The position numbers and the translations under genes are program-made. A stretch of DNA of 64,000 nucleotides from Escherichia coli. GTDB taxonomy: Bacteria; Pseudomonadota; Gammaproteobacteria; Enterobacterales; Enterobacteriaceae. The notes beneath the pieces are model-generated. The model was not told the origin of the DNA, searched no databases, and worked only from the letters and a program-made list of their open reading frames with translations. This document shows, piece after piece, positions 8,729 through 13,573 of this stretch. Every line of letters begins with the position of its first letter. Within the stretch, counting starts at the first letter, position 1. Location of the stretch: assembly GCF_013315695.1 (NCBI RefSeq), contig NZ_CP054353.1; one strand, written 5' to 3'.

Positions 8729-8805
<77 letters not shown>

Positions 8806-8862
8806 TTTAGTCCCGGCGCTTGAGCTGCGGTGGTAGTAATACCGCGTAACAAGATTTGTAGT

Positions 8863-8939
8863 GGTGGCTATAGCTCAGTTGGTAGAGCCCTGGATTGTGA
8901 TTCCAGTTGTCGTGGGTTCGAATCCCATTAGCCACCCCA
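8863..8939 (+). tRNA. hisR: tRNA-His (anticodon GTG)
   Basis: GGTGGCTATAGCTCAGTTGG...GGTTCGAATCC...CCA with extra 5' G typical of tRNA-His. Confidence 0.9.
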
Positions 8940-8959
8940 TTATTAGAAGTTGTGACAAT

Positions 8960-9046
8960 GCGAGGGTGGCGGAATTGGTAGACGCGCTAGCTTCAGGTGT
9001 TAGTGTCCTTACGGACGTGGGGGTTCAAGTCCCCCCCCTCGCACCA
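8960..9046 (+). tRNA. leuT: tRNA-Leu (anticodon CAG), long variable arm
   Basis: 87-nt GCGAGGGTGGCGGAATTGGTAGAC...GTTCAAGTCC...CACCA. Confidence 0.9.
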
Positions 9047-9088
9047 CGACTTTAAAGAATTGAACTAAAAATTCAAAAAGCAGTATTT

Positions 9089-9165
9089 CGGCGAGTAGCG
9101 CAGCTTGGTAGCGCAACTGGTTTGGGACCAGTGGGTCGGAGGTTCGAATCCTCTCTCGCCGACCA
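9089..9165 (+). tRNA. proM: tRNA-Pro (anticodon TGG)
   Basis: CGGCGAGTAGCGCAGCTTGGTAGCGCAACTGGTTTGGGACCAGTGGGTCGGAGGTTCGAATCC...GACCA. Confidence 0.9.
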
Positions 9166-9173
9166 ATTTTGAA

Positions 9174-9200
9174 CCCCGCTTCGGCGGGGTTTTTTGTTTT
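9174..9200 (+). terminator. intrinsic terminator of tRNA operon
   Basis: CCCCGC-TTCG-GCGGGG hairpin followed by TTTTTTGTTTT. Confidence 0.8.
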
Positions 9201-9311
9201 CTGTGCATTTCGTCACTTTCCCTTCGCAATAAACGCCCGTAATAACGCATTGCGCCACGGTATGATTTCGCCCTTAACTTATTGAAGGATGACTTCAGGC
9301 AAGGAGCGACC

Positions 9312-10547
9312 ATGCTGCAACAGGTTCCAACGCGTGCTTTTCATGTGATGGCGAAACCGAGCGGTTCCGATTGTAATCTGAACTGTGACTACTGTTTTTA
9401 TCTCGAAAAACAATCCCTTTACCGCGAAAAGCCAGTCACGCATATGGACGATGACACGCTGGAAGCGTATGTCCGTCACTATATCGCTGCCAGCGAAACC
9501 CAAAACGAAGTGGCTTTTACCTGGCAGGGCGGCGAACCAACGTTACTCGGGCTGGATTTTTACCGCCGTGCCGTGGCGCTACAGGCGAAATATGGTGCTG
9601 ACAGGAAGATAAGTAACAGCTTCCAGACTAATGGCGTGCTGCTTGATGACGAATGGTGTGCATTTCTGGCAGAAAATCATTTTCTTGTTGGGTTATCGCT
9701 GGATGGTCCGGCTGAGATCCACAATCAATATCGCGTGACCAAAGGCGGCAGACCAACGCATAAGCTGGTGATGCGTGCCCTGACGCTCCTGCAAAAACAT
9801 CATGTCGACTATAACGTGCTGGTCTGCGTAAATCGCACCAGTGCGTTACAACCTTTGCAAATCTATGATTTTCTGTGTGATGCAGGTGTTGAGTTCATCC
9901 AGTTTATTCCTGTGGTCGAGCGCCTGGCTGATGAAACGGCTGCTCATGCTGGACTTAAGCTACATGCTCCCGGCGATATTCAGGGCGAACTGACGGAATG
10001 GTCGGTGTGCCCGCAAGAGTTCGGTGAGTTTCTGGTGGCGATTTTCGACCACTGGATTAGGCGCGACGTCGGTAAGATTTTCGTAATGAATATCGAATGG
10101 GCGTTCGCCAATTTTGTCGGCGCACCGGGCGCGGTTTGCCATCATCAGCCAACCTGTGGGCGCTCGGTGATTGTTGAGCACAACGGTGACGTTTACGCCT
10201 GCGATCACTATGTTTATCCGCAATATCGGCTGGGGAATATGCACCAGCAAACAATCGCAGAAATGGTAGATTCCCCGCAACAGCAGGCGTTTGGTGAAGA
10301 TAAATTTAAGCAGTTACCGGCGCAGTGTCGCAGTTGTAACGTGCTAAAAGCATGTTGGGGAGGCTGCCCGAAACACCGCTTTATGCTCGATGCCAGCGGC
10401 AAACCGGGGCTGAATTATTTGTGTGCCGGGTATCAGCGTTATTTCCGCCATCTACCGCCATATCTTAAAGCAATGGTTGATCTGCTGGCGCACGGTCGTC
10501 CGGCCAGCGACATTATGCAGGCGCATTTGCTGGTGGTGAAGAAGTAA
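9312..10547 (+). CDS. aslB: anaerobic sulfatase-maturating enzyme homolog (radical SAM, SPASM domain)
   Basis: CxxxCxxC motif (CNLNCDYCFY) near N-terminus, Cys-rich C-terminus; AAGGAG RBS before ATG at 9312. Confidence 0.85.
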   Translation: MLQQVPTRAFHVMAKPSGSDCNLNCDYCFYLEKQSLYREKPVTHMDDDTLEAYVRHYIAASETQNEVAFTWQGGEPTLLGLDFYRRAVALQAKYGADRKISNSFQTNGVLLDDEWCAFLAENHFLVGLSLDGPAEIHNQYRVTKGGRPTHKLVMRALTLLQKHHVDYNVLVCVNRTSALQPLQIYDFLCDAGVEFIQFIPVVERLADETAAHAGLKLHAPGDIQGELTEWSVCPQEFGEFLVAIFDHWIRRDVGKIFVMNIEWAFANFVGAPGAVCHHQPTCGRSVIVEHNGDVYACDHYVYPQYRLGNMHQQTIAEMVDSPQQQAFGEDKFKQLPAQCRSCNVLKACWGGCPKHRFMLDASGKPGLNYLCAGYQRYFRHLPPYLKAMVDLLAHGRPASDIMQAHLLVVKK

Positions 10548-10582
10548 AAAAGCGGCCATTTTGTTGCCGCCTGCGGTTGATT

Positions 10583-10613
10583 GCCGGATAAGGCGTTCAC
10601 GCCGCATCCGGCA
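10583..10613. repeat. REP (repetitive extragenic palindrome) element
   Basis: GCCGGATAAGGCGTTCACGCCGCATCCGGCA between convergent aslB and aslA. Confidence 0.6.
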
Positions 10614-10648
10614 AGGTCAGTGTGGCCCGATGTAGCGATAGCGCCGGC

Positions 10649-12304
10649 TTAATCAGATTTAATCTGCGCGCGCGGCGGATATTTTTTCAGGATCTCCATA
10701 TACGCGTGCATTTCGGTCTGTAGCGGTACACCCATTGGGATATGGCGCACGCCGATAGAGTCGCTTTCCTGCGGATCGGTGTACAGGTTAAACACCGACG
10801 ATCCCGCCGTTTGCATTACTGTGCCGGTGAATCCACCCTGATACCCGCTCTGGGTATACGCGTACGGTTGCTGGATCAGGACGTGATACTTGAACTCATC
10901 CATACGCACAGCAGAAAGTTTACCGTTGAGGAAGTAGTGCTCGGCCTTACGGTTAGACTGACCATTTGTTCCCAGGAAGAAAGATGTCTGGTCCACACCA
11001 TCGATAAAGGTGGTTTTCGGTACTAAATTCGCTACTTTCGCCCCAGGATGCCCCGCCAGATCCAGCGCCGTAGGGAAGAGATCCGCCAGATCGACAATGC
11101 CGTCAGATTTACGCGGTTGGATCATGCCTTTCCAGTAAACGAAGGTTGGCACACGAACGCCGCCTTCCCATGTAGAACCTTTCGCACCGCGGAACGGCGT
11201 GCGACCGTGCGGCGGTACTTCCGCTTCCGGTCCGTTATCGGAGGTAAAGACGATTAGCGTGTTATCCAACTGACCATTTTTCTCCAGTGCTTTATACAGA
11301 TTGGCGAAGATATCGTTCATCTCCACCATGCAGTCGCCGTAAGAGGTGCGCGCCGGAGAGCTACCCGCATATTTCGCATTTGGGTAGTTATCGAAGTGAC
11401 AGCCGCGAGTGCCGTAGTAGAGGAAGAAAGGCTTATCGCTCTTCGCCATCTTGTCGAGGAACTTAACGCCATATTCCATCCAGCGTTGATCCAGGTCTTC
11501 CATATATTTCGGCGTAATGTCGGCAATGGCTTCCTGTTCACCGCCGCGCACGGCATGAACGTCATCTTTGCTGAATGGCAGTTTTTGGATGTATTCAGAA
11601 CGATCCGGGCTCAGGGCGACTTCCGGGTTGACGTGAACATCACGCCATTCGGTATACATATCGGATACCGAGTTAAAGCCGCGGAAATCATCAAAGCCAA
11701 CGTTCTGCGGCTGCGACTCTTTGTTTTCCCCCATATGCCATTTCCCGATGGCCTGAGTGACGTAGCCCTGATCGTGCAGCAACTGCGGCAGAGTGGTTAA
11801 CCCTTGCAGACCGCCCGGTTGCCCGTACATTGGCGGCATCAGAATGCCGTGGTGGATGGAGTATTGTCCGGTAAGAATCGTGGCGCGGGTTGGGGAAGAA
11901 CTCGGTTGAGAATACGCCGAAGTTAAAATCAGCCCCTGGCTGGCAACGGCGTCGATATCTGGTGTAGGGTTACCCACCGCCACGCCGCCGCCGTTAAAGC
12001 CAACATCCATCCAGCCCACATCATCCAGCAAGAAAACAACCACGTTCGGTTTCTTACCGGTTTTTTTCTCAAGTTCTGCCAGCTTCTGCTGGGTTTCTTT
12101 GTCTTGTGCAGGATGCTGCATCACCGGCATCATGTTGTCGGCAATAGTGGTCGCCGGTTTAACCAGATACTGGTTTGGGTGATCGTATCCGGCAAAGCCT
12201 TTGCGTGCGGTGGCGGTTGACGGGGTATCTGCTGCGTTGGCCATGAGTGGAAGAGCGGCGGCGACAGCTACAACAAGAAGTTTGGGTGAAAACGAAAATT
12301 CCAT
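10649..12304 (-). CDS. aslA: arylsulfatase-like protein with signal peptide
   Basis: 551 aa; sulfatase family features, N-terminal signal sequence. Confidence 0.9.
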
Positions 12305-12728
12305 GCAAAATGCTCCGGTTTCATGTCGTCAAAATGTTGACGTAATTAAGCATTGATAATTGAGATCCCTCTCCCTGACAGGATGATTGCATAAATAATA
12401 GTGATGAAAATAAATTATTTATTTATCCAGAAAATGAATTGGAAAATCAGGAGAGCGTTTTCAATCCTACCTCTGGCGCAGGTGATATGTAAGGCGGTGA
12501 TGTTATATCGCGTTGATTATTGATGCTGTTTTTAGTTTTAACGGCAATTAATATATATGTTATTAATTGAATGAATTTTATTATTCATTATATATATGTG
12601 TAGAATCGTGCGCAGGAGAAATATTCACTCAGGAAGTTATTACTCAGGAAGCAAAGAGGATTACAGAATTATCTCATAACAAGTGTTAAGGGATGTTATT
12701 TCCCGGTTCTCTGTGGCATAATAAACGA

Positions 12729-12935
12729 GTAGATGCTCATTCCATCTCTTATGTTCGCCTTAGTGCCTCATAAACTCCGGAATGACGCAGAGCCGTTTAC
12801 GGTGCTTATCGTCCACTGACAGATGTCGCTTATGCCTCATCAGACACCATGGACACAACGTTGAGTGAAGCACCCACTTGTTGTCATACAGACCTGTTTT
12901 AACGCCTGCTCCGTAATAAGAGCAGGCGTTTTTTT
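12729..12935 (+). ncRNA. glmZ: GlmZ small RNA (activator of glmS translation)
   Basis: sequence GTAGATGCTCATTCCATCTCTTATGTTCGCC...AACGCCTGCTCCGTAATAAGAGCAGGCGTTTTTTT matches my recollection of GlmZ including terminator hairpin; CATAAT -10 element ~7 nt upstream. Confidence 0.85.
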
Positions 12936-13533
12936 ATGACCGGATAAAGAACTGGTTACGTCGCTCCTGGGTCATCGGTTGCGCGTTTAACACTCTTACA
13001 AGAGAGCCTACCGTGACGATGGGAAGAAACGGATTCTCTTCTATTCCGCATAGATCGCGCCCGCAACGAGCAGCGGTATCTTCAACCAGCTCTTCTAACT
13101 CGACTGCGTCGCTCACCAAATCCAGATCATCGTCCAGTATATCATCGGCTTTCAGTGGCAGTGGGTAATCGATATAGCCGTTTCCTTGCAAGGTATCCCA
13201 CACCGCACGAATCACCCATGTATCTACGGTGTAGGTGTCAAATTCGCGGGCGAACTGGCAAATGGAGCGTCCCCGACGTTTATCTGCCATGATTCGGTAC
13301 TTCTTGAGGATCTTGATTTTTTCCTGCTTCGCCGCAGCTATCAGATATCCAATAAAAAGTGTTAACCAGAAGATGAATGTATTGCCCGTACGTACAAAGG
13401 AAATAATCAACCAACTTACGCCAGCCAGAGCGGCACATATCAACAAGATTAAAAAGAGCGTTGCCCGAAAAGGAGTAATTTCATGCGATGGCAAGCGGAA
13501 AAGATAGCGGGACGGCGTGCGCAATTTTGACAT
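12934..13533 (-). CDS. hypothetical small membrane protein (two predicted N-terminal TM helices, acidic C-terminal domain)
   Basis: uninterrupted 199-codon ORF lying between the glmZ terminator and the hemY terminator; weak translation-initiation context; family not recognised. Confidence 0.45.
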   Translation of the reverse strand: MSKLRTPSRYLFRLPSHEITPFRATLFLILLICAALAGVSWLIISFVRTGNTFIFWLTLFIGYLIAAAKQEKIKILKKYRIMADKRRGRSICQFAREFDTYTVDTWVIRAVWDTLQGNGYIDYPLPLKADDILDDDLDLVSDAVELEELVEDTAARCGRDLCGIEENPFLPIVTVGSLVRVLNAQPMTQERRNQFFIRS

Positions 13534-13538
13534 CCTGG

Positions 13539-13569
13539 TAAAAAAATATCGCCTCTGAACGAGGCGATA
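13539..13569 (-). terminator. intrinsic terminator downstream of hemY
   Basis: on minus strand: hairpin TATCGCCTC-GTTCA-GAGGCGATA followed by TTTTTTT. Confidence 0.65.
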
Positions 13570-13573
13570 TAGA

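Follow-up and report, generated by a model that had tools for sequence, protein, structure and literature searches.

The aslA-glmZ spacer of Escherichia coli holds the known sigma70 promoter of glmZ and an E. coli-specific tandem repeat that is most likely functionless

The aslA-glmZ spacer of Escherichia coli is an already known and characterised region. The analysis of a 64-kb stretch of E. coli DNA (hereafter, the window) shows that it comprises the published sigma70-dependent promoter of glmZ, set in AT-rich DNA, together with a short direct repeat that is most likely a functionless micro-duplication specific to E. coli. We describe the anatomy of the locus, its lack of sigma54 and GlrR motifs, and a repeat that is restricted to one lineage and polymorphic in copy number. 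This repeat is most likely neutral and of mutational origin. The architecture of the promoter, the loss of sigma54/GlrR control at Escherichia glmZ and the dispensability of the upstream sequence were published in 2010-2011; added here are the exact coordinates, motif scans with positive controls, the E. coli-specificity of the repeat with its 3.2% one-copy polymorphism, and the aslBA/tRNA-Pro context.

Organisation of the locus

Positions 12205-13000 of the window are 100% identical to the record of E. coli isolate AF3 (NZ_OZ547117.1) and are present in 5,425 of 5,426 complete E. coli genomes; the spacer between aslA and glmZ was found in 5,422 of the same 5,426 genomes. The initial annotation, made from the sequence alone, had taken aslA and glmZ to be the divergent neighbours of this spacer. 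The open reading frame, the annotated identical record and the Rfam match agree on both the identities and the order of the two genes. The match to the GlmZ covariance model, whose gathering score is 60, covers model positions 1-214, that is, the full length of the model, and places the sRNA in family RF00083.

Since the aslA reading frame ends at 12304 and GlmZ starts at 12729, the spacer is exactly the interval that had been proposed, where it was described as about 420 bp long and very AT-rich. This description holds, as the AT content of the spacer greatly exceeds the 47.9% of the window (Table 1). The GC fraction reaches its minimum of 0.20 at 12500-12599. A perfect 9-bp inverted repeat, CAATTAATA-N7-TATTAATTG, was observed at 12545-12569, within a core of 80% AT, and its arms are kept in K-12 and partly in E. 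albertii. Neither an Rfam family nor a credible small open reading frame was detected in the spacer, which several laboratories have used as a neutral chromosomal integration site.

Table 1. Features of the aslA-glmZ region, in window coordinates.
Feature	Position	Strand	Details
aslA (arylsulfatase) CDS	10649..12304	-	551-aa ORF; annotated aslA in the 100% identical NZ_OZ547117.1; divergent from glmZ
aslA-glmZ spacer	12305..12728		424 bp, 66.3% AT
Most AT-rich core of the spacer	12500..12620		GC 0.20-0.26; holds the 9-bp inverted repeat; diverges most among E. coli haplotypes
Repeat copy 1, TATTC-ACTCAGGAAG	12622..12636	+	exact 10-mer 12627-12636; overlaps a one-mismatch IHF match at 12627-39
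Repeat copy 2, TATT-ACTCAGGAAG	12638..12651	+	exact 10-mer 12642-12651
Candidate aslA-direction promoter, TTAACA-N18-TGTAAT	12689..12660	-	computed best match (PMC3946193), located by motif scan
glmZ sigma70 -35, ATGTTA	12693..12698	+	motif scan; K-12 mutagenesis in PMC3045617
glmZ extended -10, TGg-CATAAT	12714..12722	+	hexamer 12717-12722; 6 nt before +1 G 12729; K-12 mutagenesis in PMC3045617
GlmZ sRNA	12729..12935	+	Rfam RF00083, 218.4 bits, E = 4e-57
GlmZ intrinsic terminator	stem 12901-12930, T-run 12929-12935	+	terminator scan

The sigma70 promoter of glmZ

The Escherichia glmZ promoter was defined as ATGTTA-N15-tggCATAAT by Göpel et al. 2011 (NAR 39:1294, PMC3045617). This motif, ATGTTA-N15-TGGCATAAT, is matched exactly at 12693-12722 of the window, with 18 bp between the -35 and -10 hexamers and 6 nt before the GlmZ +1, as in the sigma70 promoters of group iii. 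The hexamer CATAAT, which had been proposed from the sequence as the glmZ -10 element, occurs only once in the spacer, and coincides with the -10 of the promoter that was mutagenised in K-12 (PMC3045617). In that strain, mutation of the -35 or the -10 element cripples or abolishes glmZ expression, whereas a glmZ'-lacZ fusion keeps full activity after 5' deletion to -40; these 5'-deletion fusions were plasmid-borne and were assayed in K-12 under laboratory conditions only (PMC3045617). Moreover, K-12 glmZ is unaffected by delta-rpoN, by delta-glrR and by overexpression of glrR, and neither the E. coli nor the Yersinia GlrR bound a glmZ fragment from -424 to +32 in EMSA (PMC3045617). By analogy with K-12, where they have been demonstrated, promoter activity, independence of rpoN and glrR and dispensability of the sequence upstream of -40 would also apply to the window. 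Transcription of glmZ would be driven by the ATGTTA -35 element (12693-98) and, after the 18-bp gap, by the extended -10 element (12714-22), starting from the G at 12729, and no sigma54, GlrR or IHF enhancer apparatus would be present at glmZ in the window.

The segment between the -35 and -10 elements at 12705-12717 reads CCCGGTTC in this strain and CCCGATTC in K-12. The former contains GG at -24/-23 and GC at -13/-12, a pair whose spacing is one base shorter than in the GG-N10-GC arrangement of sigma54 promoters; K-12 has GA in place of GG. This GG/GC pair may be a decayed remnant of a sigma54 promoter, or a coincidence.

Scans for sigma54, GlrR and IHF motifs

The motif TGG-N9-TGC is absent from the spacer (12305-12728), and TGGCAC-N5-TTGCA was not found at about -27 to -12 upstream of the glmZ gene of the window. 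No GlrR site of the form TGTC-N10-GACA is present with up to two mismatches in 12305-12748, where the best match has three mismatches. The IHF consensus WATCAR-N4-TTR, whose sites flank ABS3 in promoters dependent on sigma54 and GlrR, gave five one-mismatch matches in the spacer, one of them on repeat copy 1, a background that is expected in AT-rich DNA. The best match to the sigma54 motif, a sequence on the plus strand with two mismatches (TGACAG-N5-TTGCA, 12376-12391), was considered and rejected, as it lacks the -24 GG and lies 340 bp upstream of glmZ. In K-12 and O157, among others, it reads TTACA, and E. albertii does not conserve it.

As positive controls, the same scans were carried out on the glmZ upstream regions of other Enterobacterales, and both elements were found in at least 12 taxa. 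A first pattern search of contigs for glmZ loci was too degenerate: of the 120 loci that it gave, about two thirds lay outside Enterobacterales and matched by chance. TGGCAC-N5-tTGCA at -27, together with three TGTC-N10-GACA sites at about -246, -214 and -151, is found in Enterobacter, Yersinia, Serratia, Siccibacter, Cedecea and Lelliottia, and Mangrovibacter likewise has the sigma54 core with three GlrR sites at the conserved spacing. No sigma54 or GlrR elements were found by these scans in the window, in E. albertii, in Kluyvera or in the Klebsiella-type contigs. Because the control taxa score positive in the same scans, the failure of the initial annotation to find a clear sigma54 -24/-12 element is a true negative. 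Its statement that glmZ expression in E. coli depends on sigma70 only is in agreement both with the scans and with the published lack of any rpoN or glrR effect and of GlrR binding (PMC3045617). As to the checks that it had suggested, the search for GlrR and IHF motifs yielded the five one-mismatch IHF matches and no GlrR site, and the comparison with Yersinia revealed a glmZ promoter with a sigma54 core and GlrR sites, of which the window has neither.

Anatomy of the tandem repeat

The 64-kb window contains exactly two copies of the 10-mer ACTCAGGAAG, at 12627-36 and 12642-51, with a period of 15 bp. The direct repeat that had been noticed about 80-100 bp upstream of GlmZ is therefore real, its two exact copies occupying positions -102 to -78 relative to the GlmZ 5' end. 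If one indel is allowed, it lengthens to TATT(C)-ACTCAGGAAG (12622-36 and 12638-51), with identity at 14/14 positions. In 5,000 dinucleotide shuffles of the spacer, a 10-mer direct repeat appeared in 2.0% of cases at a spacing of 10-30 and in 16.6% at any spacing, while the whole window contains 5 close 10-mer repeats as compared to 1.5 ± 1.2 in shuffles. The repeat is thus mildly non-random in its local context and unremarkable for a scan of 64 kb. No function had been assigned to it in the initial annotation, which we judge appropriate. The 15-bp period corresponds to 1.5 helical turns and sets the copies on opposite faces of the helix, at variance with tandem operators of the OmpR/PhoB type, whose copies are spaced by integral turns (10-11 bp).

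Conservation and copy number of the repeat

In E. albertii, copy 1 of the repeat keeps 8/10 positions and copy 2 only 4/10, so that the half-sites are not both conserved. No such repeat is present in the aslA-glmZ spacers of Kluyvera, Pseudocitrobacter and the metagenomic contig L146, which are 402-466 bp long (68-70% AT in the first two), and no ACTCAGGAAG repeat was found in the glmZ upstream spacers of the Klebsiella-type contigs. The repeat adjoins a boundary, at about -50 to -70, beyond which the E. coli sequence no longer aligns with the DNA upstream of glmZ of the Klebsiella type.

Strain 980-2 shows a clean 15-bp deletion of one repeat unit. A search with a junction-specific 40-mer detected this one-copy allele in 176 of 5,426 E. 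coli genomes (3.2%); the ST648 lineage is an example of natural one-copy strains. The upstream sequence is fully of the window type in 173 of these genomes, and in at least two of the remaining three the match begins only at query position 8, which is what K-12-type upstream sequence would give; the deletion of one unit probably arose more than once. No three-copy allele was found among the E. coli genomes, nor was an allele of the repeat region resembling that of E. albertii. Both copies fall within a 109-bp stretch (12620-12728) that 4,995 of 5,420 E. coli genomes share at an identity of 99% or more. Among 8 diverse strains, this stretch shows no difference in 69 positions, whereas the adjacent 139 bp differ at 12%. 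Some constraint may act on -110 to -41, yet zero differences over 69 sites are within neutral expectation. The spacer is 424 bp long in E. coli and 425 bp in E. albertii, so that the duplication need not have been a simple additive one.

The adjacent segment of the window, 12481-12619, exists in E. coli as two deeply divergent haplotypes: that of the window (B2-like) and that of K-12, O157 and others differ at 17/139 positions (12%). It is flanked by nearly invariant sequence, and the split may derive from an old recombination import.

Candidate promoters on the aslA side

In genomic SELEX with K-12 DNA, this spacer was bound by H-NS and contained a site for the RpoD holoenzyme; the best-match promoters computed by the authors were TTAACA-18-TGTAAT on the aslA side and TTGAGA-17-GATGAT on the glmZ side (PMC3946193). 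These predictions are weak, because the one for glmZ differs from the experimentally proven promoter. The candidate for aslA lies back to back with the glmZ -35 element, with its predicted start at the edge of the repeat, and neither E. albertii nor Pseudocitrobacter conserves its -10 element. A consensus scan gave other weak promoter candidates on the minus strand, 4 sites as compared to 2.9 expected. The divergent aslA promoter that the initial annotation had placed in the spacer is a candidate only, although a reasonable one for a divergent gene pair. Apart from these elements, the spacer would consist of AT-rich DNA bound by H-NS, as reported for K-12.

Possible origin and role of the repeat

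We argue that the repeat is most likely functionless because it lies upstream of -40, where the sequence is dispensable for glmZ, is restricted to one lineage and is polymorphic within E. coli. It would have arisen in the E. coli lineage as a micro-duplication or a short templated change, and recombination or slippage between the two copies would occasionally remove one unit. It might be objected that the identity of the two 10-mers is a pure coincidence, with no duplication event behind it, considering that chance would yield about 1.5 close repeats of this kind in 64 kb and that the E. coli and E. albertii spacers are equal in length, with no 15-bp gap between them. We hold this to be highly improbable: the flanking TATT is repeated too (14/14 positions, with one indel), the excess of close repeats in the window (5 vs. 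1.5) suggests that local duplication processes are real, and the two copies do interact as repeats, as shown by the clean loss of 15 bp. A post-transcriptional role seems no more credible. Transcribed from the minus strand, the repeat would appear as two copies of CUUCCUGAGU at the beginning of an aslA leader, since the computed promoter at 12689..12660 would start near 12653 and place the copies at about +2 to +27 of a leader of approximately 350 nt. However, this promoter is a best-match computation whose -10 element is unconserved in E. albertii, and the putative minus-strand leader shows neither excess RNA structure (z = -0.96) nor a match in Rfam, so that we give this reading very little credit.

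An effect at the level of DNA binding deserves more attention, even if we consider it unlikely that the two direct repeats serve as an operator, bound by some transcription factor acting on the H-NS-silenced aslA or, in other conditions, on glmZ. The repeat is exact, locally non-random (2% of shuffles) and invariant in nearly all two-copy E. coli genomes. Its position at -102 to -78 of glmZ is in the range of class I activators and, with respect to the computed aslA-direction promoter, it lies just downstream, where a repressor would bind. In addition, aslA responds indirectly to RpoE and LL-37 in E. coli K1 (PMC9147696), and an indirect response implies that further regulators of aslA exist; RpoE itself was rejected as a direct regulator, since only indirect regulation is reported in that paper. 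On the other hand, glmZ needs nothing upstream of -40, the 15-bp period sets the copies on opposite helix faces, and the repeat is unconserved in E. albertii, Kluyvera, Pseudocitrobacter and L146, all of which have aslA beside glmZ. Furthermore, 176 genomes, whole lineages among them, live with one copy and, in a comparison by eye, no match of the repeat to a familiar regulator consensus was recognised. We regard as slightly less likely still a lineage-specific operator for a putative regulator, either an H-NS antagonist on aslA or a condition-specific modulator of GlmZ, which would be tuned by the polymorphism between two copies and one. Binding of a regulator to the repeat, if real, would offer a first handle on the control of a cryptic arylsulfatase gene. 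The aslA gene has been implicated in invasion by K1 strains.

The repeat region might also be an architectural site, where IHF binding or H-NS nucleation would shape the spacer. Copy 1 with the following TTA fits the consensus WATCAR-N4-TTR with one mismatch (12627-39), and the spacer is H-NS-bound in genomic SELEX. Nevertheless, the five one-mismatch IHF matches in the spacer are as many as chance predicts, the repeat is the least AT-rich part of its neighbourhood, the IHF sites of this promoter family accompany sigma54 promoters, of which there is none here, and the activity of the glmZ promoter is unaffected. An architectural function thus appears very unlikely, and we retain a functionless micro-duplication as the preferred reading.

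Natural variation at aslA and downstream of glmZ

Disruptions of the locus are found in natural strains: an IS1 element is inserted in the aslA-glmZ spacer of strain FLI21, and the aslA gene is cut short in strains M11 and E2865 and carries a frameshift in 980-2. These disruptions fit a dispensable locus.

On the other side of glmZ, a strain-variable segment of about 600 bp (12936-13573), absent from K-12, lies between the glmZ terminator and hemY. It was found in 690 of 5,426 genomes, where it occurs as two alleles with a divergence of about 12%. It contains an open reading frame on the minus strand (12934..13533) of 199 aa, annotated in RefSeq as a hypothetical protein of 118 aa, whose TAA stop codon overlaps the T-run of the GlmZ terminator at its last two T's. 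By eye, the 199-aa product shows two apparent hydrophobic segments at the N-terminus and an acidic C-terminus; it gave no significant match in Pfam, NCBIfam or PADLOC.

The aslBA segment and the distribution of glmZ promoter types

In the window, the tRNA operon Arg-His-Leu-Pro ends at 9165 and tRNA-Pro is separated from glmZ by 3,564 bp; aslB, aslA and the AT-rich spacer occupy the gap between the two (window 8729-12728). This distance is about 3.6 kb in both E. coli and E. albertii, because the aslB-aslA genes and the spacer intervene, as compared to 146-333 bp in Citrobacter, Enterobacter and Klebsiella-type contigs (L008, L019, L144) and up to 605 bp when Serratia is included. From this spacing, aslBA would seem to have been inserted beside a tRNA gene. 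The AT content (66% vs. 48%) and the distance from tRNA-Pro are those of an AT-rich segment that was acquired horizontally beside a tRNA gene and is bound by H-NS, the binding by H-NS being taken from the literature only. The 8-mer AATAAACG, which is found at both the left (9228) and the right (12720) end of aslBA, was rejected as a target-site duplication, since by our own estimate about one shared 8-mer is expected by chance.

We also considered whether the insertion of aslBA caused the loss of the GlrR sites and of the -24 element. In a first sample, aslA adjacency coincided with loss of sigma54 control in 4/4 taxa, as compared to 0/14 of the others. This explanation was rejected when a scan of metagenomes showed that Klebsiella-type contigs have a homologous promoter that is sigma70-only, most of these contigs having tRNA-Pro 177 bp upstream and lacking aslA. 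The homology to the sigma70-only promoter (window 12680-12728) is seen in the Klebsiella-type loci (L131-L163) and in Kluyvera (L055). Citrobacter, a closer relative of E. coli, has a sigma54-type core instead, so that the distribution is phylogenetically patchy, which could reflect recombination. Among the Citrobacter loci compared (L008, L028 and L090), C. werkmanii and Citrobacter sp. FP75 carry a sigma54-like core, TGGCAT-N5-GTGC, and no GlrR site in the 146 bp to tRNA-Pro, while the core of C. youngae carries mutations in its GG as well as in its GC (CCGCAT...TGTAATAAT). The Citrobacter cases may represent further independent losses of GlrR/sigma54 control.

Comparison with known systems

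The closest known system is the glmZ promoter of E. coli K-12 (group iii), which shares with the window the locus, the motif, the distance from the GlmZ 5' end and the 424-bp length of the spacer, and likewise lacks sigma54 and GlrR elements and probably IHF elements too. In the core promoter the two differ at a single position, 12706, which is G in the window and A in K-12 and lies between the -35 and -10 elements; over the whole spacer they diverge by 5.2%, the window carrying a B2-type haplotype.

The repeat can be compared with slippage-born short tandem duplications and mini-VNTRs. It likewise consists of two adjacent units with a 15-bp period, and an allele lacking one unit is segregating. 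Unlike mini-VNTRs, it has only two copies, with no expansion, and its units are identical over 10-14 bp rather than over the full 15 bp.

The glmY and glmZ promoters that depend on sigma54, GlrR (QseF) and IHF, such as those of Yersinia, Salmonella and Enterobacter and that of E. coli glmY, drive an orthologous sRNA from the same +1. Unlike these, the window has no TGGCAC at -27 and no TGTC-N10-GACA. When the sigma54-type core GTGCAATAATATACGn is compared to positions -16 to -1 of the E. coli promoter (GTGGCATAATAAACGA), 12/16 positions match. On the strength of this match, the sequence suggests that the sigma70 -10 element of E. coli glmZ is a retained, overlapping -12/-10 element.

The Klebsiella-/Kluyvera-type glmZ promoter, ATGCAA-N15-tgcGATAAT, is sigma70-only, as in E. 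coli. The homology of the Klebsiella-type sequence GATGCAATTTCCCCGGATCCTGTGCGATAAT to the promoter of E. coli extends from about -48 to +1 (81% identity over 48 nt, E = 1e-6). Unlike E. coli, most Klebsiella-type contigs have tRNA-Pro 177-190 bp upstream, with no aslA and no 400-bp AT-rich spacer. A sigma70-only glmZ promoter is therefore common to E. coli, Klebsiella and Kluyvera, with aslA or without it.
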